NCBI GenBank assembly: GCA_017438845.1
Contig: JAFRUO010000020.1
Coordinates: 5,349 to 69,348, forward strand
Source: Clostridia bacterium
GTDB taxonomy: Bacteria; Bacillota; Clostridia; Oscillospirales; Acutalibacteraceae
Reading direction: 5' to 3'
Length of the DNA stretch: 64,000 nucleotides
Below, piece after piece: positions 4,210 through 55,790 of the stretch; position 1 is the stretch's first letter, and every line of letters starts with the position of its first letter. Position numbers and translations under genes: made by a program. The notes beneath the pieces are model-generated. The model was not told the DNA's origin, searched no databases, and was given only the letters and a program-made list of their open reading frames with translations.

Positions 4210-4240
4210 AAAGCGGAGTGTTGATTTGCTCCGCTTTATT
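4210..4240 (+). terminator. Probable intrinsic terminator after mltG
   Basis: AAAGCGGAG / CTCCGCTTT 9-bp stem followed by TTTATT. The T-tract is weak. Confidence 0.45.
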
Positions 4241-4259
4241 ATTGAAGCAGGAGATCAAT

Positions 4260-5483
4260 ATGATAAAAAGACCTGAGCTTTTAGCGCCTGCAGGCGACAG
4301 GGAGCGTTTTGACAGTGCGCTTGCCGCAGGAGCTGACGCAATATATGTAGGCAGCACCATGTTTTCAATGAGAGCGGCGCCGAAGAATTTCGACTTCGAT
4401 GAGCTTTCACAAATATGCAGTCTGTCACACGAAAAGGGCGTAAAAATATATCTTACGCTGAACACCCTTCCGAAAAACAGCGAGGTGGCGCTTCTTCCCG
4501 AATATATCAAAAGCTCAGCCGCGGCAGGGGTTGACGCCTTTATTGTTGCCGATGTCGGCGTTATGAGCCTTTGCAAAAAATATGCCCCCGAGGTTGACGT
4601 GCATATTTCCACTCAGGCAGGCGTGGTAAATTACCTTACAGCCAATGAGTTTTACAATCTCGGAGCAAAAAGAATAGTTACTGCGCGGGAGCTTTCGCTT
4701 GAGGATATTGCCGAAATGAGAGCCAAAACCCCGAAGGAGCTTGAGATTGAATGTTTTGTTCACGGTGCGATGTGCGTTTCGTTTTCGGGGAGATGCCTTA
4801 TTTCAAACTACCTGCTCGGACGCGACGCCAACCGCGGAGAGTGCGCCCAGCCCTGCCGTTGGGAATACTACCTTATGCAGAAGGACAGGCAGGGGAATTA
4901 CTTCCCGATTGACCAGAATAATAACGGCACATATATACTTAATTCAAAGGATATGTGTATGATTGAGCATATCGCCGACCTCGTAAAGGCGGGAGTTGAT
5001 TCTTTTAAAATAGAAGGACGGGCAAAGTCAGCTTACTATACCGCTGTAATCACCAATGCATACAGAATGGCGATTGACGGCTATCTTGAAAACCCGAGCG
5101 ACAGCTATGTGCCAGAGCAGTGGATAATTGATGAAACCCGAAAGGTAAGCTACCGTGAATACGGCACGGGCTTTTACTACGAAGCTCCGTCCGTTAATGC
5201 CAATGTTTCTTACGAGGGCGGTTACCGCAGGGAATGGGACGTTATGGCAGTCGTTGAAAAATGCGAGGACGGCTGTATTTGTGCCGAACAGAGAAACAAG
5301 TTTTGCGTCGGTGACGAGCTTGAGGCGCTGACCTTCGGCGAAAAACCGCAAAGCTTTACCGTTTCGGAGCTTCTTGACGCCGACGGCAACCCGATTGAGA
5401 GCGCGCCGCACCCGATGATGAAGCTTAAAATCAAATCGGAGCTTAACCTTAAGCCCGGAACACTGCTCAGGAAGCAGTCATAA
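4260..5483 (+). CDS. Peptidase U32 family protein (collagenase-like)
   Basis: N-terminus MIKRPELLAPAGD and CxxxC-containing core (GECAQPCRWEY) typical of U32. AGGAG upstream of ATG 4260; the track start at 4218 lies inside the terminator hairpin. Confidence 0.8.
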   Translation: MIKRPELLAPAGDRERFDSALAAGADAIYVGSTMFSMRAAPKNFDFDELSQICSLSHEKGVKIYLTLNTLPKNSEVALLPEYIKSSAAAGVDAFIVADVGVMSLCKKYAPEVDVHISTQAGVVNYLTANEFYNLGAKRIVTARELSLEDIAEMRAKTPKELEIECFVHGAMCVSFSGRCLISNYLLGRDANRGECAQPCRWEYYLMQKDRQGNYFPIDQNNNGTYILNSKDMCMIEHIADLVKAGVDSFKIEGRAKSAYYTAVITNAYRMAIDGYLENPSDSYVPEQWIIDETRKVSYREYGTGFYYEAPSVNANVSYEGGYRREWDVMAVVEKCEDGCICAEQRNKFCVGDELEALTFGEKPQSFTVSELLDADGNPIESAPHPMMKLKIKSELNLKPGTLLRKQS

Positions 5484-5499
5484 AATTTATAAAAGCACA

Positions 5500-5532
5500 A
5501 CCTCTGTCAATAATATGACAGAGGTGTTTTTT
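5500..5532 (+). terminator. Intrinsic terminator after the U32 gene, overlapping the PBP ribosome-binding site
   Basis: 10-bp stem AACCTCTGTCA / TGACAGAGGT, loop ATAATA, then a T6 run ending 1 nt before ATG 5533. Confidence 0.6.
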
Positions 5533-7122
5533 ATGTATAAAAGGTCGGCATATCTTTTCTTCTTGCTCTGCTTTGTGCTCGGAATAATGTGCACGCGGCT
5601 TGCGCTTATCGGCCAAGGGCTTGTGCAAAGCGCGGCAGGCATGAGCAATTCCGTGTCCGTTACCGCAGACAGCTCACGGGGTATGATATACGACCGTAAT
5701 ATGAAGCCGCTTGTAAACTCCGAAAGGAAGAAATACATTGCCGTAAAGCCTGATGTTCAGGCGTATGAGGAAAACAAAAAATATATACCCGAAGCCGAAA
5801 GACAGCTTGTATTTGAGGAGATTTCCTCGGGCAGAATCGGAATCAGCGAAGCAGTAAACGCCGCCGACAACGAAGAAAATCTTCTGTTTGAAAAGCTGAT
5901 AAGATACCCGTCGGAAGGCTTCTGCGCGCACCTTATAGGCTATACCGATTCGAGCGGTCACGGAGTCAGCGGACTCGAAAAATACTACGACGAAATACTT
6001 TCACGAAACGGCGGAAGCATAAAAATAATATGCAGTGTGGACGCGCGTCGAAATCCGCTGAAGGGTGAAAAAATGAAATACGAAAGCGACGGTTACGCCT
6101 CTGCGGCAGGCATAAGCGTAACAATCGACACTGATGCCCAGACAGTAGCCGAGAAAGCGGCGGCCCAATACGGACTCGACAGGGGAGCAATAGTGATACT
6201 GACTGTTGACAGCAGTGAAATACTGGCTTTGGTCAGCACGCCCTGCTTTGACCGAAATAATATAGCCGAAAGTCTTGAAGACCCCTCGTCGCCGTTTGTC
6301 AACCGTGCTGTCACCCCTTACAGCGTGGGCTCCGTGTTTAAGGCGGCGGTTGCCTGCGCCGCCGTGGAGAGTGGAGTACCCGAAGGTCTTTTATATAACT
6401 GTACGGGCGAATATACAATCGGGGAAAACAGCTTCGGTTGTCACAAAAAGGACGGGCACGGCGAGCTTGATATGCAGGGAGCGATGACGGTTTCGTGTAA
6501 TCCGTATTTTATAAACCTTGCCGAAACCGTCGGTAAAGAAAGTATATGTGAAACAGGTCGAAAGCTTGGGCTCGGCAAAAGAATCGAGCTTTGCGACGGC
6601 TGGTATACACCGTCGGGAATAATGCCCGATGAAGCCGAGCTTGTTTCACGGCAGGACCTTGCAAACCTCGCCTTCGGGCAGGGCAGGTTGCTGGCTTCTC
6701 CTCTGCAAATGGCAGCATTGTATGCGGCAATCGCCAACGAAGGGGTATACCGCCGTCCGAGCCTTATGAAGGGAATAATAAATGAAAACGGCGAAACGGT
6801 AATGGCGGCGGAGCTTCCTGCGCCGAGAAGGGTGATGAAAAAGGAAACCGCCGAAGCGGTAGGCAGAATGCTTTTTGCAACGGTAAATGACGGAAGCTCG
6901 GGAAAGGCAAAGCCCGAAAGCAAAACCGCCGCAGGCAAAACCGCAACGGCTCAGTCGGGTCAGTTCAAGGAAAACGGAGAAGAGATAATCAGGTCGTGGT
7001 TTTGCGGATATTTCCCTTATGAAAGCCCGAAATACGCCGTGGCAATTCTTAAAGAGGACGGCAGGGGAGGCACCGCCGACTGCGCTCCGATTTTTAAATA
7101 TATCGCCGACAATCTGGAGTAA
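5533..7122 (+). CDS. Class B penicillin-binding protein (PBP2/FtsI/SpoVD-like transpeptidase)
   Basis: N-terminal TM helix, SxxK (SVFK), SxN (SCN) and a third box reading KTA. GAGGTG lies 6 nt before ATG 5533; the track start at 5515 has no SD. Confidence 0.8.
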   Translation: MYKRSAYLFFLLCFVLGIMCTRLALIGQGLVQSAAGMSNSVSVTADSSRGMIYDRNMKPLVNSERKKYIAVKPDVQAYEENKKYIPEAERQLVFEEISSGRIGISEAVNAADNEENLLFEKLIRYPSEGFCAHLIGYTDSSGHGVSGLEKYYDEILSRNGGSIKIICSVDARRNPLKGEKMKYESDGYASAAGISVTIDTDAQTVAEKAAAQYGLDRGAIVILTVDSSEILALVSTPCFDRNNIAESLEDPSSPFVNRAVTPYSVGSVFKAAVACAAVESGVPEGLLYNCTGEYTIGENSFGCHKKDGHGELDMQGAMTVSCNPYFINLAETVGKESICETGRKLGLGKRIELCDGWYTPSGIMPDEAELVSRQDLANLAFGQGRLLASPLQMAALYAAIANEGVYRRPSLMKGIINENGETVMAAELPAPRRVMKKETAEAVGRMLFATVNDGSSGKAKPESKTAAGKTATAQSGQFKENGEEIIRSWFCGYFPYESPKYAVAILKEDGRGGTADCAPIFKYIADNLE

Positions 7123-7130
7123 TGAAAACG

Positions 7131-7210
7131 AATATTGAAAAATAAAAAAAGCATACTGAAAAATAAAAAAGTATACTGAAAAATAAAAAAGTATACTGAA
7201 AAATAAAAAT
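7131..7210. repeat. Four tandem copies of a 20-bp A-rich unit (GTATACTGAAAAATAAAAAA)
   Basis: Direct reading gives units at 7131-7150, 7151-7170, 7171-7190 and 7191-7210. The last three are nearly identical. Confidence 0.9.
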
Positions 7211-7640
7211 GAATAATTGCGTATGGGCGACCGGCGGTCGCTCGAAAGCCTCCCCTGTGTAAGGGGAGGTGTTTTTTTGCCAAAGCAAAAAGACGGAGGG
7301 GTAGTAAACTGTTATAATGAATACTTAAAACTGAAAACTTAAAAATGAATAATGACCGTAGGGGACGGCGTCCCGACGTCCCGAGGGAATTATATTAAAT
7401 ATCACAATTAACACCAAAGAAGCACGTATTATCCTCAACATCGAATCGTAGGGACGAACATTGTTCGTCCGCACGCCTTCCCCTTGAGGTGACTCCCTTG
7501 TTAAGGGAGATGTCTGCGTAGCAGACAGAGGGTTTCCCGTTTTCGGAGAAAAAAGGTGCCGAATGTAATGAGGCGGATGAGGTGTAATAAAACAGCATCA
7601 AACCTATGTTGGCGACCTGCGGTCGCCCTAAAGTCACGCT
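7211..7640. repeat. Mosaic of GC-rich palindromic units, dispersed repeat family copy 1
   Basis: Hairpins GGGCGACC..GGTCGC (7224-7243), GGGACGAAC-ATTG-TTCGTCC (7451-7470) and GGCGACC-TGC-GGTCGCC (7611-7627). Segments 7432-7473 and 7475-7605 recur at 35139-35179 and 35554-35685. Confidence 0.85.
7249..7278 (+). terminator. Intrinsic terminator (likely end of the PBP transcript) embedded in the repeat mosaic
   Basis: CCTCCCCT / AGGGGAGG 8-bp stem, 5-nt loop, then TGTTTTTTT. Confidence 0.6.
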
Positions 7641-7687
7641 TTAAAGCTTAAAAGTGATAATGTCTTAAATTATTTTTGCGAAAAAGG

Positions 7688-7716
7688 TTGACAAAGTCAC
7701 AACATGGTGTTAAGAT
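7688..7716 (+). promoter_or_regulatory. Sigma-A-type promoter of the aro operon leader
   Basis: TTGACA (7688-7693), 17-nt spacer, TGt-TAAGAT extended -10 (7711-7716). Confidence 0.6.
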
Positions 7717-7743
7717 TATTTCAACAAAAATTCGGAGCAGCTT

Positions 7744-7827
7744 ATGAAATCTTTACTTTTTACAGCTGAATACTTCTACTTTTACTTTATCAACTATTTT
7801 GGTAGGGTCTTGCAAGTTTCGCTGTAA
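7744..7827 (+). CDS. Candidate leader peptide MKSLLFTAEYFYFYFINYFGRVLQVSL (27 aa, 4 Tyr + 5 Phe)
   Basis: GGAG (7734-7737) lies 6 nt before the ATG. The YFYFYF run plus YF sit upstream of a terminator and of an operon making Tyr and Phe. Below the ORF-track size cutoff. Confidence 0.55.
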   Translation: MKSLLFTAEYFYFYFINYFGRVLQVSL

Positions 7828-7857
7828 CAAGGTAAACTGAGTTTTGTGTAAGTTTAT

Positions 7858-7892
7858 ACCTCGCAGTGAAATTTGCTGCGAGGTCTTTTTTA
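7858..7892 (+). terminator. Leader (attenuator) intrinsic terminator upstream of aroF
   Basis: ACCTCGCAG (7858-7866) / CTGCGAGGT (7876-7884) 9-bp stem, 9-nt loop, then CTTTTTTA. The aroF SD AGGAAGG follows. Confidence 0.7.
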
Positions 7893-7907
7893 TAGGAAGG
7901 TGAAATT

Positions 7908-8915
7908 ATGATTGTTATTTTGAAAAACAACGCCGAACAGCAGAAGGTTGAAATTTTAAAGCAATGGCTTGAAAACCAGCAGCTTTCAATTCACGAGTCT
8001 GTCGGTGAATACCAGAGAGTATGGGGTCTTGTAGGCGACACCAGCAGAATCGACACCGATTTAATCGAAGGTCTTGACATAGTTGAGGGCGTAAGGAGAA
8101 TTTCCGAGCCCTACAAGCAGGCGAACAGAAAGTTTCACCCCGACGACACCGTAATCGACCTCGGCGGCGGCAACCTTATCGGCGGCGGTCATTTTCAGTA
8201 TTTTGCAGGCCCCTGCTCGGTTGAAAGCGAGGAGCAGATTATCGAGGTCGCAAAGGCCGTTAAAAAATCGGGCGCCAATATTTTAAGGGGCGGCGCATTT
8301 AAGCCGAGAACATCACCGTATGCTTTCCAGGGCATGAGGGCGGAGGGACTTCGCCTTTTACTGCTTGCAAAAGAGGTTACGGGTATGCCGATTTGTACCG
8401 AGATAATGGACGCTTCACACCTTGACCTTTTCGAGGAGGTTGACATTATCCAGGTCGGCGCGCGTAATATGCAGAACTTTGAGCTTTTAAAGGAACTCGG
8501 AAAAACCGACAAGCCGATTTTCCTTAAAAGAGGTCTTTCCGCAACCTTCCAGGAGCTTCTTATGAGCGCTGAATACATCATGGCAAACGGTAACAGTAAG
8601 GTTATCCTCTGCGAAAGGGGAATCCGCACCTTTGAAACCGCAACAAGAAACACGCTGGATTTGTCGGCGGTGCCGATGCTTCACGAGAAATCGCACCTCC
8701 CGGTAGTAATTGACCCGAGTCACGCTTCGGGTATCGCAAGGTTTGTAAAGCCGATGTCATATGCCGCGGCGGCAAGCGGTTGCGACGGACTTATGATAGA
8801 GGTTCATAACGACCCTGCAAAGGCGCTTTCCGACGGCCCTCAGGCATTAAGACCCGAGGAATTTGACGAGGTCGTCAAGGGCGTTGAAAAAATCAGAAAT
8901 GCATTAAAGGACTGA
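7908..8915 (+). CDS. aroF: 3-deoxy-7-phosphoheptulonate (DAHP) synthase, type I-beta with an N-terminal regulatory extension
   Basis: 335 aa. KDO8P/DAHP-synthase I-beta core (GPCSVES, KPRTSPY..FQG, DPSH) after a ~70-aa N-terminal domain. First gene of the shikimate cluster. Confidence 0.85.
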   Translation: MIVILKNNAEQQKVEILKQWLENQQLSIHESVGEYQRVWGLVGDTSRIDTDLIEGLDIVEGVRRISEPYKQANRKFHPDDTVIDLGGGNLIGGGHFQYFAGPCSVESEEQIIEVAKAVKKSGANILRGGAFKPRTSPYAFQGMRAEGLRLLLLAKEVTGMPICTEIMDASHLDLFEEVDIIQVGARNMQNFELLKELGKTDKPIFLKRGLSATFQELLMSAEYIMANGNSKVILCERGIRTFETATRNTLDLSAVPMLHEKSHLPVVIDPSHASGIARFVKPMSYAAAASGCDGLMIEVHNDPAKALSDGPQALRPEEFDEVVKGVEKIRNALKD

Positions 8916-8919
8916 TAAA

Positions 8920-9765
8920 ATGTTAATCGGAGTAGTCGGCCTCGGACTTATCGGAGGCTCACTTGCAAAGGCGATTAAATACAACACCCTCAACACGGTG
9001 CTCGGCAGAGATATTGACCTTAATGTTACGCTCAAGGCAAAGCTGCTCGGGGCGATTGACGGCGATCTTACAGACGAAAAGCTATCCGAGTGCGATATTA
9101 TTATCACGGGGCTTTACCCTCAAAGTACAATTGATTTTGTCACGGAGAATGCCGACCTGATAAAAAAGAACGCGATAGTTATTGACACCTGCGGAGTAAA
9201 GGAGTTTGTCTGCGAAAAGCTCTTTGCGCTCGCCGAGGAGCACGGCTTTACCTTTGTCGGAGCGCATCCGATGGCGGGGCTTCACCTCTCCGGCTTTGAA
9301 AACTCAAAGGTTACGATGTTTAATAACGCCTCAATGATTCTTGTGCCCGGTGGTAATACCGACATCAATATTCTTGAAAAAGTGAAAAAGCTGTTTTTGT
9401 CTATCGGCTTTACTAATATTCAGATTACCACCGCCCGTGAGCATGACAGAATTATTGCCTTCACCTCACAGCTCGCCCATGTTGTGTCAAACGCCTATGT
9501 AAAAAGCCCGACTGCGAAGCTTCATAAGGGCTTTTCGGCGGGAAGCTATAAGGATTTAACAAGGGTTGCAAAGCTCAACGAGGTAATGTGGACGGAGCTG
9601 TTTTTTGAGAACAGGGACAACCTGATAACCGAAATTGACTTTATTACGGAAGAGCTTAAAAAATATTCCGACGCTCTCAGAAGCTGTGACGAGGAGGCTC
9701 TGCTTTCGCTTTTGAAGGACGGCAGAGAGTGTAAGGAAGCTATTGACGGGGAGTATACCGATTAA
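8920..9765 (+). CDS. tyrA: Prephenate dehydrogenase
   Basis: Rossmann N-terminus IGVVGLGLIGGSLA and the GAHPMAG motif. Confidence 0.85.
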   Translation: MLIGVVGLGLIGGSLAKAIKYNTLNTVLGRDIDLNVTLKAKLLGAIDGDLTDEKLSECDIIITGLYPQSTIDFVTENADLIKKNAIVIDTCGVKEFVCEKLFALAEEHGFTFVGAHPMAGLHLSGFENSKVTMFNNASMILVPGGNTDINILEKVKKLFLSIGFTNIQITTAREHDRIIAFTSQLAHVVSNAYVKSPTAKLHKGFSAGSYKDLTRVAKLNEVMWTELFFENRDNLITEIDFITEELKKYSDALRSCDEEALLSLLKDGRECKEAIDGEYTD

Positions 9766-9774
9766 GGAGCAGTT

Positions 9775-10839
9775 ATGGAAAAGGTGCTTGTAAAAACCGA
9801 AAAGAGCTATGAATGCCTTATCGGAAGAGGCTTGCTAAAAAAATGCGGCAGTCTTATTAAAGAAACGGTCAGCGCAAAAACAATTGCGATAGTTACCGAT
9901 GACCTTGTTGACAGGCTTTACTCACAGACGGTTGAGGTCTCTTTGAAACAGCAGGGCTTTGAAACCGTTAAATACGTTTTTAAAAACGGAGAAGCCTCGA
10001 AGAATATTTCGGTCTTTTCCGAGATGCTTGAATTTATGGCGCAAAGCAGGCTTACGAGAGGCGACTGTATTCTTGCGCTCGGCGGCGGAGTGGTCGGAGA
10101 TATGGCAGGCTTTTGCGCCGCAACCTATTTAAGGGGCGTGCCGTACATACAGCTTCCCACAACTTTGCTCGCAATGGTCGACTCATCTGTCGGTGGGAAA
10201 ACCGCAATTGATTTAAGGGCGGGCAAAAACCTTGCAGGCGCTTTTTATCAGCCCGAGCTGGTTATTGCCGATGTCGATACATTGGCTACGCTGAAGGCGG
10301 AAACCTTTGCCGACGGCATGGCGGAAACTATTAAATACGGCGTGCTTTTTGACAGAGAGTTTTTTGATTTTCTAAAGGAAAACGATGCGTCAGGTGAGCT
10401 TGAAAAAATTGTAAAACGCTGTATTGAGTTTAAGAGAGATACGGTCGAAAGGGATGAAACCGAGAAGGGCGAAAGGGCTCTGCTCAACCTCGGTCACACA
10501 ATCGGCCACGCAATTGAAAAATGCAGCTCGTATACCGTTACTCACGGCAGTGCGGTGGCGGCAGGTATGTGTATTATAGCGAAGGGCGCATATAGGTGCG
10601 GCTTATGCGAAGAGAACATATATGATGAGCTGGTGAGCATATTGAAAAAGTACGGTCTGCCGACAGAAAGCACCTTTACTTCCGAGCAGTTATTTGATAT
10701 GGCTTTGTCGGACAAGAAAATGAAATCGGACGGAATAACGCTCGTTATTCCCGAAAAAATCGGTCGGTGCAGACTGCTTAAAGCTGAATTAAGTTTACTC
10801 AAGGACATAATCGAAAAGGGGACAGGTAATGAAGATTAA
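9775..10839 (+). CDS. aroB: 3-dehydroquinate synthase
   Basis: GGGVVGDMAGF, DSSVGGKTAI and NLGHTIGHAIE motifs. Confidence 0.9.
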   Translation: MEKVLVKTEKSYECLIGRGLLKKCGSLIKETVSAKTIAIVTDDLVDRLYSQTVEVSLKQQGFETVKYVFKNGEASKNISVFSEMLEFMAQSRLTRGDCILALGGGVVGDMAGFCAATYLRGVPYIQLPTTLLAMVDSSVGGKTAIDLRAGKNLAGAFYQPELVIADVDTLATLKAETFADGMAETIKYGVLFDREFFDFLKENDASGELEKIVKRCIEFKRDTVERDETEKGERALLNLGHTIGHAIEKCSSYTVTHGSAVAAGMCIIAKGAYRCGLCEENIYDELVSILKKYGLPTESTFTSEQLFDMALSDKKMKSDGITLVIPEKIGRCRLLKAELSLLKDIIEKGTGNED

Positions 10840-12097
10840 AATCAAACCGAGCGTCCTTAACGGAAAAATAAAGGCGATTTCCTCAAAATCGCAGGTACAC
10901 AGAATGCTGATTGCCGCGGCGCTTGCCGACGGGGAAACTGCCATTTTCTTTGACAGTACAGGCGAGGATATAGACGCTACCGTTGATTGCCTTACCGCTC
11001 TCGGAGCGAAAATTGAAAAAGGCAACGGCTGTCTTAAGGTAACACCGATTAAGGAAGCACCGCTTAAGGCAACTCTTGACTGCAGAGAAAGCGGCTCGAC
11101 GCTGAGGTTCCTGTTACCTGTGGCGGGTGCGCTCGGCGTAAGCGCCTGCTTTACGGGCTCGGGCAGACTTCCGTCAAGACCGATTATGCCCCTCAGGCGT
11201 GAAATGGAAAACGCAGGAATCAGCTTTTCCGAGCCGTGGAAATTCCCGATTGAGATTTCGGGCAAGCTTGAGCCGGGAGCTTATCAGCTCAAGGGCGACG
11301 TCAGCTCACAGTTTGTAACGGGGCTTTTGGTTGCTCTTCCTCTGCTCGACGGTGACAGCACGCTAAGGCTTATCCCTCCCGTTGAATCACGTCCGTATAT
11401 TGATATGACTCTTGAGGTACTGAGTTTCTTCGGCATTAAAATAGAGGAAAAGGATAACAGCTTTTTTATAAAGGGTGCTCAGAAATACCGTTCTCCCGAA
11501 ACCCTGACCGCAGAGGGCGACTGGTCGAATGCGGCGTTTTTCCTCACGGCAGGGGCGCTGGCAGGAAGCGTTACCGTTACGGGGCTTAACCCGACATCGC
11601 TTCAGGGCGACAGGAAAATTACAGAGCTTTTAGAGCAGATGGGTGCCGACGTTTCAGTCCTTGACGGTGAAGTTACCGTCAGCAGAAATAAGCTCAAGGC
11701 AATAAGCATTGACGCTGCCGACATACCCGACCTTGTGCCTGTCTTAAGCGTGGCAAATGCGGCGGCGGACGAGGGGCTTTGCGTTATTTCAAACGCTCAA
11801 CGCCTTAAAATAAAGGAAAGCGACAGACTTGCGGCGGTAAGCGAATGCCTTAACAACATAGGCAACGTCAACGCACAGACAGACGACGGCATTGTCATCT
11901 GGACTTATGAAAGGCTCACAGGTGGCGAGGTTTTCTCCTTTAACGACCACAGAATTGTTATGGCTATGGCGATAGCGTCTGCGGCATGTGAAGGCGATAT
12001 AACAATAAGAAATGCGGAGGCGGTGAGCAAATCGTACCCCGATTTCTTTGAGGATTTTAAACTATTGGGAGGTAAGGCAGATGTCATCGATTCTTAA
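10829..12097 (+). CDS. aroA: 3-phosphoshikimate 1-carboxyvinyltransferase (EPSP synthase)
   Basis: 422 aa with KSQVHRMLIAAALA, SGSTLRFL and NDHRIVMAMAIA motifs. Overlaps the aroB end by 11 nt. Confidence 0.9.
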   Translation: MKIKIKPSVLNGKIKAISSKSQVHRMLIAAALADGETAIFFDSTGEDIDATVDCLTALGAKIEKGNGCLKVTPIKEAPLKATLDCRESGSTLRFLLPVAGALGVSACFTGSGRLPSRPIMPLRREMENAGISFSEPWKFPIEISGKLEPGAYQLKGDVSSQFVTGLLVALPLLDGDSTLRLIPPVESRPYIDMTLEVLSFFGIKIEEKDNSFFIKGAQKYRSPETLTAEGDWSNAAFFLTAGALAGSVTVTGLNPTSLQGDRKITELLEQMGADVSVLDGEVTVSRNKLKAISIDAADIPDLVPVLSVANAAADEGLCVISNAQRLKIKESDRLAAVSECLNNIGNVNAQTDDGIVIWTYERLTGGEVFSFNDHRIVMAMAIASAACEGDITIRNAEAVSKSYPDFFEDFKLLGGKADVIDS

Positions 12098-13151
12098 AGG
12101 CAATAAGCTCAGCGTATCGGTTTTCGGTCAGTCTCATTCCGAATGTATAGGAGCGGTAATTGACGGGCTTCCTGCAGGAGCGGAAATCGACAGAGACAGG
12201 ATTAATGCATTTATGGGAAGGCGTGCGCCCGGGCAGAATTTCTTTTCTACCCTTCGCAAGGAAACGGACAGACCCGAGTTTTTAAGCGGACTTGTCGACG
12301 GCGTAACCTGCGGTGCTCCGCTTGCGTTTAAAATCGACAATGCCAATGCAAAAAGCGCAGATTACGAAAGCCTTAAGAAAACTCCCAGACCGTCACACGC
12401 AGACTATACGGCTTACGTCAAGTTCGAAGGGCACAACGACATTGCAGGCGGCGGGCAGTTCTCGGGCAGACTTACCGCGCCCCTTTGCTGTGCAGGAGCA
12501 ATCTGCCTGCAGCTTTTAGAGGAAAAGGGCATTACGGTAAAAAGCCATATTTATTCGATTAAAGATGTAAGGGACGACGCATTCAATGCCGACAACCTTT
12601 TTGACAGTGAAATAAAACTAAACCCGTTTTTCCCCGTGCTTAACCGATTTAACGGCGATAGGATGAAAACGGTAATACAGACGGCTATGGAAAATTCCGA
12701 CTCCGTAGGCGGAGTGATTGAGTGTGCAGTGCTCGGGCTTCCGACAGGACTCGGAGAGCCGATGTTTGACGGAATGGAAAACATAATCGCAAAAAACATT
12801 TTCGCCATTCCCGCAGTAAAGGGAATTGAGTTCGGGAGCGGCTTTGAGGGAACGCTGAAGTACGGCAGTGAAAACAATGATGATTTCACCGTAAAGGACG
12901 GAAAAATTTCGACCGTTACCAACAACCACGGGGGTATTCTCGGAGGTATTACCTCGGGTATGCCGCTTGTGTTCAGGGTTGCGGTCAAGCCTACACCGTC
13001 TATCGGTACCGAGCAGACCAGCGTAAACCTTGATACCAAAAAAGAAGAAGCACTTACCGTAAGAGGCAGACATGACCCGTGTATTGTTCCGAGGGCTGTG
13101 CCTGCGGTCGAAGCGGTTGCCGCCATAACTGTGCTTGACTTGTTGCTTTAA
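12081..13151 (+). CDS. aroC: Chorismate synthase
   Basis: FGQSHSE.IGAVIDG N-terminus and RPSHADY, GRHDPCIVPRAV motifs. GGAGG lies upstream of ATG 12081; the track start at 12048 lies inside aroA. Confidence 0.9.
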   Translation: MSSILKGNKLSVSVFGQSHSECIGAVIDGLPAGAEIDRDRINAFMGRRAPGQNFFSTLRKETDRPEFLSGLVDGVTCGAPLAFKIDNANAKSADYESLKKTPRPSHADYTAYVKFEGHNDIAGGGQFSGRLTAPLCCAGAICLQLLEEKGITVKSHIYSIKDVRDDAFNADNLFDSEIKLNPFFPVLNRFNGDRMKTVIQTAMENSDSVGGVIECAVLGLPTGLGEPMFDGMENIIAKNIFAIPAVKGIEFGSGFEGTLKYGSENNDDFTVKDGKISTVTNNHGGILGGITSGMPLVFRVAVKPTPSIGTEQTSVNLDTKKEEALTVRGRHDPCIVPRAVPAVEAVAAITVLDLLL

Positions 13152-13162
13152 GGAGGTAAAAA

Positions 13163-14308
13163 ATGAATATAGATCAATTAAGAAGGAATATAGACTCAAT
13201 TGATACGGAGCTTGTAGAGCTCTTTAAAAGAAGAATGAAAACTGCGGCTGATATTGCGGAATACAAGCAGCAGAATAACCTGCCCGTGCTCGATAAGTCG
13301 AGGGAGAGAGAGCTTTTAAACAAGGTCGCCGATATAAGCGGCGAGGAGTACGAAAACTATACCCTCAGGCTTTATTCGCAGATACTTGAGCTTTCAAAGG
13401 CATATCAGAGCAAGATAATCAAAACACCGAGTCCCCTGTATGAAAAGATAAGCGAGGCGGTGGCAAACAAGGACCGTGTTCAGTTTCCCGAAAAGGCAAT
13501 TGTCGCTTGTCAGGGTGTAGAGGGGGCATACTCGTCGCTTGCGTGCGAGAAGCTTTTCAGAACGCCGAGCATTATGTTTGTAAACAGCTTTGACGCAGTC
13601 TTTTCCGCAGTCAGTCAAGGGCTTTGTCAGTACGGTGTGCTTCCGATTGAGAACAGTACGGCAGGCTCGGTAAACCGAGTGTACGACCTGATGGACAAAC
13701 AGAAGTTCAGCATTGTAAAATGTGTACGTCTTAAAATTAACCACTCGCTTCTTACTAAAAAAGGAACAAGGCTTGAGGATATTAAGGAAATTTACTCACA
13801 CGAAATGGCAATTGCACAGAGCGCCGATTTCCTTTCAACGCTTGACGGAGTAAAGATAATTCCCTGCGACAACACGGCAGTCGCCGCCAAAATGGTGGCA
13901 GACAGTGAGCGTAACGATGTTGCGGCCATCTCCTCTGCCGAATGTGCGGCGTTGTACGGGCTTGAGACCCTGTGTGAAGCCGTGCAGGACAAGGCGGACA
14001 ACTATACGCGTTTTATCTGTATTTCCAAAAAGCTTGAAATATATCCGGGCGCTGACAAAACAAGCCTTGTGCTGACCCTTCCGCATAAGCCGGGCGCACT
14101 GTATAATCTGCTTTCCATGTTCTCTGCGCTTGACATAAATATTTTAAAGCTTGAAAGCCGACCGCTTGACGGCAGAGATTTTGAATTTATGTTCTATTTC
14201 GACGTAGAGGCTTCCGTCTATTCGGATAAATTTTTGCAGATGATAACCGAACTTCCCGAAGCGACCGAGAGCTTTTCCTACCTTGGCAGCTACAGCGAAA
14301 CGGTTTAA
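13163..14308 (+). CDS. pheA: Bifunctional chorismate mutase / prephenate dehydratase (P-protein) with a C-terminal ACT domain
   Basis: N-terminal CM_2 helix (LRRNIDSIDTELVELFKRRM), a PDT core (PIENSTAGSV) and an ACT-like tail (ESRP..). Confidence 0.85.
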   Translation: MNIDQLRRNIDSIDTELVELFKRRMKTAADIAEYKQQNNLPVLDKSRERELLNKVADISGEEYENYTLRLYSQILELSKAYQSKIIKTPSPLYEKISEAVANKDRVQFPEKAIVACQGVEGAYSSLACEKLFRTPSIMFVNSFDAVFSAVSQGLCQYGVLPIENSTAGSVNRVYDLMDKQKFSIVKCVRLKINHSLLTKKGTRLEDIKEIYSHEMAIAQSADFLSTLDGVKIIPCDNTAVAAKMVADSERNDVAAISSAECAALYGLETLCEAVQDKADNYTRFICISKKLEIYPGADKTSLVLTLPHKPGALYNLLSMFSALDINILKLESRPLDGRDFEFMFYFDVEASVYSDKFLQMITELPEATESFSYLGSYSETV

Positions 14309-35100: not shown

Positions 35101-35835
35101 TTTTTTTGAAGCATTCACCCACAGGGGACGAAGAATTTCCTCAACATCCTATCGTAGGGACGAACATCGTTCGTCCGCATAAAATCACATCAAACCTTGC
35201 TCCTGCCGTAAATAGTGAAAAGTGAATAGTGAAGAAGTAATAAGTATTTGCTACGCAAACCGTAGGGGCGACCATTGGTCGCCTCTGCTTTTATAAGATT
35301 GTAGTTTTTAATCCGTAGGGGACGGGGCGTTACGGCTCCCTTGTGTAAAGGGAGCTGTCAGCCGCAGGCTGACTGAGGGATTGTGAATAGTGAATAGTGA
35401 AGAAGTAATAGGTGTTTGCTTCGCAAACGGAGGGGTAGTCAAAGAAACAAATCAACAAATCTACCCCTCAGTCTCGCTTCGCTCGACAGCTCCCCTCTCA
35501 AGGGGAGCTTGTAAGGTTGTAATGAAAACACATCAAACCTCGGCGGGATGAAAGCCTTCCCCTTGAGGTGACTCCCTTGTTAAGGGAGATGTCTGCGAAG
35601 CAGACAGAGGGTTTCCTGTTTTCGGAGAAAAAAGGTTGCCGAATGTAACGAGGCGGATGAGGTGTAATAAAACCGCATCAAACCTCGGCGGGCGACCAAT
35701 GGTCGCCCCTACAGTTTGCAAAGCAAACACTTATTACTTCTTCACTATTCACTATTCACAATCCCTCAGTCAGCCTGCGGCTGACAGCTCCCTTTACACA
35801 AGGGAGCCGTAAACGCGCCGTCTCCTACGGATAAG
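35101..35835. repeat. Mosaic GC-rich palindromic repeat region, copy 2. It contains a ~118-bp imperfect inverted repeat (35311-35428 / 35714-35832) around a 285-bp core.
   Basis: The reverse complement of 35714-35832 matches 35311-35428 with a handful of mismatches or indels. The core carries the 132-nt module 35554-35685, also found at 7475-7605. Multiple GGCGACC-N4-GGTCGCC and GGGACGAAC-N4-TTCGTCC hairpins are present. Confidence 0.9.
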
Positions 35836-55115: not shown

Positions 55116-55478
55116 ATGCTTTGTGACCAGTTAAAGTATGTACGAAAGGCGAATAAGTTTACACAGCAGCAGGTTGCGGATGCCATTAACATTGAGCGTT
55201 CCACATATGCTTCCTATGAAACGGGAAGAAACAGACCGGATGTGAATACACTTTCAAGCTTTGCAAAAACCTTCGGAGTTACGGTTGACTTTATTGTAAA
55301 CCTTGATACCTCCGTGCCGATGTCCGATATTAAGAAAAAATATGACAGCGGCATCAACAAAAAACAGATGGTATTAAGCCAGCTTAATTCCGATGAGAAA
55401 AACATAATTGCTTATTTCCGCAATTGCTCAAAGCAGGAAAAGCAGGAAATACTTGATCTGATTTCTAAAAAGAAATAA
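55116..55478 (+). CDS. XRE-family helix-turn-helix transcriptional regulator
   Basis: LKYVRKANKFTQQQVADAINIERSTYASYETGRNRPDV is the canonical HTH_3 motif. ATG 55116 follows AGGTGA. Confidence 0.85.
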   Translation: MLCDQLKYVRKANKFTQQQVADAINIERSTYASYETGRNRPDVNTLSSFAKTFGVTVDFIVNLDTSVPMSDIKKKYDSGINKKQMVLSQLNSDEKNIIAYFRNCSKQEKQEILDLISKKK

Positions 55479-55489
55479 AAAAGGATAAT

Positions 55490-55528
55490 AAAAAAAAGAC
55501 CCCTTGGTGCAGAATATACATCAAGGGG
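55490..55528 (-). terminator. Intrinsic terminator, strong on the minus strand
   Basis: CCCCTTGGTG / CATCAAGGGG stem (1 mismatch). On the minus strand it is followed by T8 (A-run 55490-55497 on plus). Confidence 0.65.
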
Positions 55529-55790
55529 AATTTTCATGCCGGGAAGTTACAGGACATAAGTGATTATGAAAATGAAACTGATATCTTTGGGTAAACAGTA
55601 TCATATCTTACAGCCTCTTTCAAGTGTTATGGTACAACACAGAGCTGTTAATCTTTAGGATGGGCATATCATTTATCGACCGGCAGGACTTTACCTTTTT
55701 TCTTAAAATTTGAGTAGAATATACTCCATTCGCCGTAAATGATTTTTCGTCTTTTGTTTAGCCGTATTAAATTCTTCTTTCTTCGGCTCG
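55529..55790 (-). ncRNA. Candidate unannotated minus-strand transcript (sRNA or tiny-ORF mRNA) between the XRE and HxlR genes
   Basis: Bounded by a TTGACA-17-TAACAT promoter (55796-55824, minus) and the T8 terminator at 55490-55528. No ORF longer than 46 codons and no family recognised. Confidence 0.3.

Follow-up and report, generated by a model that had tools for sequence, protein, structure and literature searches.

How is the main aromatic amino-acid operon controlled in a clostridial genome where a short open reading frame (ORF), rich in phenylalanine (Phe, F) and tyrosine (Tyr, Y), and a terminator stand directly in front of aroF? The question is raised by a stretch of 64,000 nucleotides (nt) from a Clostridia bacterium (assembly GCA_017438845.1, contig JAFRUO010000020.1, positions 5,349 to 69,348), referred to below as the window, in which the segment 7688-7907 was proposed in a first-pass annotation to be a leader-peptide attenuator. 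We consider this element very probably to be a ribosome-mediated attenuator of the aroF operon that responds to the charging of Phe- and/or Tyr-tRNA, a reading drawn from the sequence of the locus and of its relatives. That the leader senses both Phe and Tyr we hold to be probable, with less confidence. The proposed class has stood up to the analysis: an ORF with a Shine-Dalgarno (SD) sequence and an ATG, Phe and Tyr codons, a terminator and the mutually exclusive helices of an attenuator (1:2, 2:3 and 3:4, named by the four regions that form them) are all present in the window and conserved among relatives.

The leader of the aroF operon

The elements of the leader, in the order in which they are met by RNA polymerase, are as follows.

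7688-7716, + strand: sigma-70-type promoter, TTGACA (7688-7693), a 17-nt spacer and TAAGAT (7711-7716), matching the consensus at 10 of 12 positions
7734-7737, + strand: SD sequence of the leader, GGAG, 6 nt before the ATG at 7744
7744-7827, + strand: leader ORF, 27 codons, encoding MKSLLFTAEYFYFYFINYFGRVLQVSL, with the stop codon UAA at 7825-7827
7771-7800, + strand: regulatory codons, YFYFYF (7771-7788), Ile-Asn and YF (7795-7800)
7858-7891, + strand: intrinsic terminator, a 12-bp stem (7858-7869/7873-7884) with the loop AAU (7870-7872), followed by C and U6 (7886-7891), -17.6 kcal/mol
7895-7910, + strand: start of aroF, with the ribosome-binding site GGAAGGTG (7895-7902) and the ATG at 7908

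The promoter has an extended -10 element, TGtTAAGAT (7708-7716, with the TG at 7708-7709), and transcription is predicted to start near 7723, about 20 nt 5' of the leader ORF. The leader peptide contains 5 Phe, 4 Tyr and no Trp, with six of the Phe and Tyr residues strictly alternating; no gene is annotated at this ORF in the public assemblies. The promoter, the GGAG and the ORF with its composition are all found as the first-pass annotation had placed and described them. The same is true of the operon, which had been said to carry tyrA and pheA together with common-pathway genes: the NCBIfam assignments agree, and the Phe and Tyr regulatory codons match an operon with tyrA and pheA functions. 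A terminator does precede aroF and is followed by C and U6, as had been claimed; its stem has 12 bp closed by a 3-nt loop, not the 9 bp first given. The U-tract ends 16 nt before the aroF ATG, so close to the start of the gene that no room is left for a separate aroF promoter.

When a dense site is defined as at least six Phe or Tyr per eight residues, the + strand of the window contains a single F/Y-dense site, the aroF leader. A dense reading on the - strand at 55496 (55470-55540) was rejected as a second leader, as it is a hairpin with a T-run that resembles a terminator and happens to read as Phe, Tyr and Leu codons.

Competing helices in the leader RNA

Can the leader RNA form the alternative structures that an attenuator needs? 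Three regions upstream of the terminator 3' arm are involved.

7752-7793, + strand: region 1, which contributes the 5' strand to the 1:2 hairpin and contains the F/Y codons as well as the Thr-Ala codons UUACAGC
7799-7838, + strand: region 2, able to act either as the 3' strand in the 1:2 hairpin (7799-7836) or as the 5' strand in the antiterminator (7812-7825 and 7830-7838)
7851-7876, + strand: region 3, which supplies the antiterminator with its 3' strand and overlaps the terminator from the 5' arm through the loop into the start of the 3' arm

These regions give three competing helices: the 1:2 hairpin (7752-7838, -23.5 kcal/mol), which is the anti-antiterminator, the 2:3 antiterminator (-24.3 kcal/mol) and the 3:4 terminator (-17.6 kcal/mol). 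Their energies are balanced as in textbook attenuators, and the design is the textbook four-region one. The 1:2 hairpin includes the pairing of UUACAGC (7760-7766) with GCUGUAA (7821-7827), in which the UAA is the stop codon of the leader; the stop codon therefore sits within region 2. The core of the antiterminator is a 14-bp helix between GCAAGUUUCGCUGU (7812-7825) and GCAGUGAAAUUUGC (7863-7876), with the inner helices AGGUA/UACCU (7830-7834/7857-7861) and AACU/AGUU (7835-7838/7851-7854). In a fold of 7806-7878 the antiterminator has a z-score of -4.58, and none of 200 shuffles is equally stable (folding and duplex z-scores are taken against dinucleotide shuffles throughout). The five base pairs of AGGTA with TACCT had been offered in the first-pass annotation as the best antiterminator candidate; this pairing is real, and it is an inner extension of the 14-bp helix, which supersedes it as the complete antiterminator. 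The leader RNA as a whole folds with a z-score of -4.1.

Folding the RNA with a ribosome footprint masked, a check that the first-pass annotation had suggested, gives a divided answer. The complete free leader RNA folds into the 1:2 hairpin and the terminator. When all RNA 5' of the leading edge of a stalled ribosome is masked and the position of the A site is varied, the structure of minimum free energy (MFE) is the antiterminator for an A site on Phe11-Phe15 or on Phe19, even with the full terminator present; for an A site on Tyr10 or Tyr18 the terminator forms instead, and it also forms for a ribosome on the leader stop codon. A 29-nt ribosome mask on full-length leaders, on the other hand, leaves the terminator in place almost everywhere in equilibrium folding, the window included. 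In the growing free transcript of the window, the 1:2 hairpin is the MFE structure until the 3' end reaches about 7868. Equilibrium MFE is a poor discriminator, and we therefore rely on the statistics of the 2:3 duplex and on folds of nascent transcripts.

A covariance model, R1, was trained on the 1:2 and terminator structures of the relatives described below, with the antiterminator left out of the fit. Its sole match in the window is 7756-7895, at 103.8 bits; matches of the model on the minus strand were rejected because they are reverse complements of palindromic terminators.

Conservation of the leader among relatives

"Does such a leader exist in front of aroF in other species?" To this question we bring the 80 loci with the closest AroF (63-77% identity, one genome per species), and search for short ATG ORFs rich in F/Y that lie at most 350 nt 5' of aroF. 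Nearly all of these loci are labelled Clostridia and most come from metagenome-assembled genomes (MAGs), the exceptions being three Bacteroidaceae-labelled MAGs. The labels include Acutalibacteraceae, Oscillospiraceae, Ruminococcus, Faecalibacterium, Lawsonibacter, Christensenellaceae, Anaerovoracaceae and some Lachnospiraceae, and among the cultured carriers are Angelakisella massiliensis and Pseudoflavonifractor. Metagenome contigs of the same species as the window are uninformative because their leaders are 100% identical.

A short ORF with an SD sequence, an ATG and an F/Y run is found 5' of aroF in about 64 of the 80 relatives, so that the search of orthologous upstream regions for an F/Y ORF followed by a terminator, also suggested at first pass, comes out positive. 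Counted by density alone, an F/Y-dense site lies within 500 nt 5' of aroF in 58 of the 80 loci, whereas elsewhere in these loci, on both strands, such sites number 0.009 per 500 nt. Examples of the leaders are MKRNIFAAEYFYFYFINKS, MSLFVFAAAYFYFYFIMTRSKSDLCCK and MTIRSFTAAYYYYYYF, and the homologous pattern can be written as M..F(A/T)A(E/A)YFYFYF... An SD-like motif stands 4-16 nt before the in-frame ATG in all 64 leaders, as compared with 2 loci and 1 locus for the other two frames. A promoter matching at least 10 of 12 consensus positions is present within 115 nt 5' of the leader in 48 of 60 leaders (3.2% of shuffles), and the median distance from the end of the -10 element to the leader ATG is 32 nt.

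Is it the translated peptide or the RNA that is kept? One could suppose a switch that works independently of translation, such as a T-box, a metabolite riboswitch or an element of the TRAP/PyrR type, the F/Y ORF being a by-product of a structural element rich in UAC and UUU. In favour of this, the segment of F/Y codons forms one side of a conserved helix, UACUUUUACUUU : AAAGUAAAAGU, which points to selection on it at the RNA level, and the Rfam models of PyrR (19.8 bits against 54) and of the trpB motif (22.5 bits against 59) are matched weakly, below threshold. These matches, however, are driven by the terminator hairpin. At the gathering thresholds of Rfam 15, which includes the Trp, His, Leu and Thr leaders and the Lactococcus leu/phe leader, there are no matches in the window and none in 18 related loci without an obvious leader. 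In E-value mode the window yields chance-level matches only, again driven by the terminator, of which the best is the LasI thermometer (24.3 bits against 76), and no T-box is matched in 7100-8000 even at E<=10. The identities of T-box, PyrR and other known motifs were accordingly rejected. The codons speak against such a switch as well. The order of F and Y and the codons used differ by lineage (YYYYYY, FFYFFNFFF, YFTFIFTF), but all 64 leaders retain the amino-acid class, the frame, the SD sequence and the ATG, a sign that selection acts on translation and not just on an RNA motif. Phe and Tyr together account for about 83% of the run (41.8% and 40.9%, respectively), and Trp for 0.2% of leader residues; of the 569 codons of the run, 476 have U at position 1, 505 have A or U only at position 2 and 547 have a pyrimidine at position 3. 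We regard a translation-independent switch as very unlikely.

A second possibility is that the peptide itself is the active product, either as an arrest peptide of the TnaC type that senses free Phe or Tyr in the exit tunnel, or as a small hydrophobic peptide acting in trans. Trans-acting leader peptides are known, as in the case of peTrpL (PMC7298713), and the conserved N-terminal part, (F)-A-A-E/A-Y-F-Y-F, reaches beyond the bare F/Y run. The Ala-Ala codons in this part, GCAGC(U), pair with the GCUGC of region 2, however, and their conservation is thereby explained at the RNA level. The C-terminus, the length (14-47 residues) and the position of the stop codon are not conserved, and the architecture of 1:2, 2:3 and 3:4 helices suits stalling at hungry codons. 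A peptide of this kind is highly improbable. Hidden Markov models of leader peptides in Pfam and NCBIfam give no match to three representative leaders at E<=10.

The leader travels with the aro operon and not with the gene upstream: the order aroF-tyrA-aroB-aroA is kept in the relatives while the genes 5' of the leader are not.

RNA pairing among relatives

We turn to the RNA structure of the relatives. A strong terminator lies 3' of nearly every leader. Compensatory changes are seen at 10 of its 13 pairs in a MAFFT alignment of 25 leaders and at 13 of 13 in a second covariation analysis, and RNAalifold recovers the terminator from an unbiased alignment. Between the terminator stem and the start codon of aroF lie 34 nt in the median case, and at most 60 nt in 51 of 55 relatives, a gap so short that aroF must be transcribed through the terminator.

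The antiterminator is seen as a complementarity between the segment that separates the last F/Y codon from the terminator (region 2) and the 5' arm and loop of the terminator (region 3). Over 58 loci the 2:3 duplex has a mean energy of -17.5 kcal/mol and a mean z-score of -2.53, with p<=0.05 in 66% of them. This complementarity is kept in spite of unlike terminators, as in GCCGCACGAAUUUCC : GAAAUUUGUGCUGC, CGAUGUUUGCAUAGCAAA : UUUUGCUAUGUGAAACGUC and CCCCUGUGGCAAAGAUGCC : GGCAUUUUUGC..GCAGUGG. In an alignment of 52 sequences that was fitted to the 1:2 and terminator structures, the antiterminator is 80.6% paired as compared with 26-58% in slid controls, and it contains 22 double-change cells against 10.8 in shuffles, none of 500 shuffles being as high. 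The 1:2 duplex has a mean z-score of -2.17 in the relatives, and the 1:2 helices are 79-89% paired in the 52 sequences. The covariance model R1 places one match directly 5' of aroF in 51 loci (E<2e-4). When a stalled ribosome is present and the 3' arm of the terminator is absent, 57 of 59 loci fold with at least half of the terminator 5' arm engaged in upstream pairs.

These data also bear on another explanation of the hairpin, as a common terminator without regulatory function that belongs, for instance, to a gene for a small RNA or a peptide; aroF expression would then be constitutive and come from leaky read-through or a different promoter. The hairpin is indeed strong and is thermodynamically dominant in most relatives. 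In the window and the relatives alike, however, the gap between the U-tract or stem and the ATG is too short to hold a promoter, the complementarity of regions 2 and 3 is significant and follows each lineage, and the element is linked to aroF and not to the upstream genes. An unregulated terminator is extremely unlikely to be the explanation.

Several observations weigh against the attenuator and need to be set beside this evidence. About 14 of the 80 relatives are without the leader element, including the second-closest locus, L002 (72% AroF identity), where an F/Y leader is absent from the 3 kb upstream; L039 and L072 have pheA 5' of aroF, and a leader was not found in them. From these three loci it appears that the leader has been gained or lost, or the operon rearranged, within the clade. 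RNAalifold on the unbiased alignment recovers neither 1:2 nor 2:3, only the terminator, and the covariation in both helices is modest, which we attribute to the high conservation of segments that are constrained by coding and by two pairings. Folded at equilibrium with region 1 masked, 11 of 59 loci switch and the terminator stays the MFE structure in 48 of 59. In unmasked nascent transcripts 2:3 is already the MFE structure in 33 of 59 loci, and in the window too. As equilibrium folding on its own fails to separate the two states, the model depends on a decision that is kinetic and co-transcriptional, as it is in the classical systems. Transcription in B. subtilis is reportedly uncoupled from translation, the 'runaway' transcription of Johnson and co-workers (2020); an uncoupling of that type, if valid here, would make the timing between ribosome and polymerase harder to achieve.

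Proposed mechanism

How would the leader work? From the sequence we infer a model in which the leader is translated, the ribosome can stall, the helices form in a kinetic order and the operon responds in vivo. When Phe- and Tyr-charged tRNAs are plentiful, the ribosome would pass the YFYFYF..YF codons and reach the stop codon at 7825-7827. As the stop lies inside region 2, this region would then either lie under the ribosome or be base-paired to region 1. With region 2 unavailable, the terminator (7858-7884 and its U6) would form, and transcription would stop about 15 nt short of aroF. When Phe and/or Tyr is scarce, the ribosome would stall on the F/Y codons and occupy region 1. Region 2 (7812-7838), left free, could pair with region 3 (7851-7876) once region 3 emerges, and this 2:3 pairing would sequester the 5' arm and the loop of the terminator so that RNA polymerase reads into the operon.

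Were the leader to sense both amino acids, its alternating Tyr and Phe codons would combine the signals of two end products in a single switch. Its prevalence would imply that ribosome and polymerase are timed closely enough for a class of Firmicutes to use classical attenuation.

Relation to known systems

Control of this kind in Firmicutes is usually credited to T-boxes, riboswitches and RNA-binding proteins. The aroF leader is a widely conserved new case of a well-known class of regulator, and its mechanism is not new. Which known systems does it resemble? In E. coli the pheL-pheA and pheM-pheST systems sense charged tRNA by way of ribosome stalling (PMC3082878, PMC11802643). They share with the aroF leader a promoter-proximal ORF with Phe codons, the 1:2, 2:3 and 3:4 helices and a terminator before a gene of the Phe pathway. 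The aroF leader has no sequence or structure homology to pheL, as judged from Rfam, NCBIfam and Pfam, none of which gives a match. The run in pheL consists of Phe only, whereas the clostridial leader has Phe and Tyr at about 1:1, often strictly alternating. The downstream operon is also different, being here a six-gene operon led by aroF that combines the common pathway with tyrA and pheA, and the host is a Gram-positive anaerobe of the class Clostridia.

The closest system in gene context, as far as the account in PMC11802643 (citing Neshat 2014) goes, is aroR-aroF of C. glutamicum, where a leader also precedes an operon headed by the DAHP synthase gene aroF. According to the same account, ribosome-mediated attenuation is experimentally supported there; the leader contains Phe-Tyr-Phe, and read-through goes up under limitation for Phe and not for Tyr. 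The host of aroR belongs to the Actinobacteria, and three regulatory codons are described for it as compared with 8-9 in the clostridial leader. Comparing the two by description, we consider an independent origin likely.

A further system is uORFC-13-1 of Acholeplasma, a Bacillota-related lineage. As presented by Brewer et al. 2021 (PMC8632094), it is a predicted Phe upstream ORF (uORF) with an adjacent terminator, found exclusively 5' of aroF, for which attenuation is proposed; it is known there from Acholeplasma and unassigned environmental sequences, with 24 representatives. Going by the description in that source, its consensus has a U-run with at least one Phe, in contrast to the alternating Tyr and Phe of the clostridial leader; the two may be related. 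Leader-peptide attenuators of his operons have been predicted in Firmicutes, some Clostridia among them, namely in the B. cereus group, the Peptostreptococcaceae and the Erysipelotrichales (PMC9413887, PMC2965389); these concern another amino acid and operon, are narrowly distributed and have unrelated sequences. The claim that a leader-peptide attenuator would be unusual for Firmicutes has thus to be toned down, given these predicted his leaders (PMC9413887, PMC2965389) and the predicted Acholeplasma Phe uORF (PMC8632094). A search of the full-text literature, with subscription papers outside its scope, found no description of an F/Y leader 5' of aroF in Clostridia. T-boxes, finally, which in Firmicutes commonly attenuate aromatic genes by sensing tRNA, share with the aroF leader the choice between terminator and antiterminator 5' of amino-acid genes and the charging of tRNA as the signal; Stem I with its specifier and the T-box sequence are absent from the aroF leader, where sensing would go through translation of a short ORF.

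Does the leader then represent a family? We see roughly even chances for an uncatalogued family of leader attenuators on the main aromatic operon that sense both Phe and Tyr; going by record labels, it would reach past the Oscillospiraceae and Acutalibacteraceae and include MAGs assigned to Christensenellaceae, Anaerovoracaceae and Lachnospiraceae. The element offers a concrete regulatory model for aromatic amino-acid biosynthesis in abundant, little-studied Clostridia of the gut and rumen, whose Phe and Tyr metabolism feeds host-relevant metabolites. As a widespread case of leader-peptide attenuation in Firmicutes, it would bear on the coupling of transcription and translation in these bacteria, and its balanced, alternating Tyr/Phe run makes it a natural system in which to study how one attenuator integrates the signals of two amino acids. 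The seed alignment and the model R1 could be used to annotate a feature that is absent from Rfam and whose short ORF is missed by gene finders.

Genes of the operon and surroundings of the locus

The genes behind the leader are the following; a convergent glycosidase gene comes after pheA.

7908-14308, + strand: operon aroF-tyrA-aroB-aroA-aroC-pheA, named by NCBIfam
7908-8915, + strand: aroF, DAHP synthase
8920-9765, + strand: tyrA, prephenate dehydrogenase
9775-10839, + strand: aroB
10829-12097, + strand: aroA
ending at 13151, + strand: aroC
13163-14308, + strand: pheA, chorismate mutase/prephenate dehydratase

The mechanically called aroC ORF begins with a TTG at 12048 and overlaps aroA by 50 nt. 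Its true start is probably near 12111, because chorismate synthase profiles align only from residue 22-23 onward.

Upstream of the leader, a gene of the U32 family is found at 4218-5483. Its best match is TrhP, a prephenate-dependent tRNA U34 hydroxylase, at 313 bits against a curated cut-off of 534 bits. The gene lies 2.4 kb 5' of the operon that makes prephenate, and its nearness to that operon may be coincidental. It is followed by a penicillin-binding-protein gene (5515-7122), at whose stop codon an A-rich tandem repeat begins (7121-7209), composed of 4.4 copies of the 20-nt unit AATAAAAAAGTATACTGAAA with 90% matches. An F/Y-dense reading near 7208 on the - strand was discarded as spurious, since it comes from this repeat read in reverse.

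The palindrome GGCGACCNGCGGTCGC occurs at 7225-7241, 7611-7628, 35267-35283 and 35691-35707, which amounts to 8 strand matches where 0.11 are expected, and it may belong to a REP- or MITE-like repeat family. The first two copies bracket a GC-rich, ORF-poor stretch of about 370 nt (7217-7640) that contains further small palindromes (e.g. 7447-7475) and has no Rfam match. In L081, a metagenome contig of the same species, an MFS transporter gene takes the place of the penicillin-binding-protein gene 5' of an identical leader and aroF; this difference in the upstream gene indicates a strain-level rearrangement at the repeat-rich intergenic region, upstream of about 7560.

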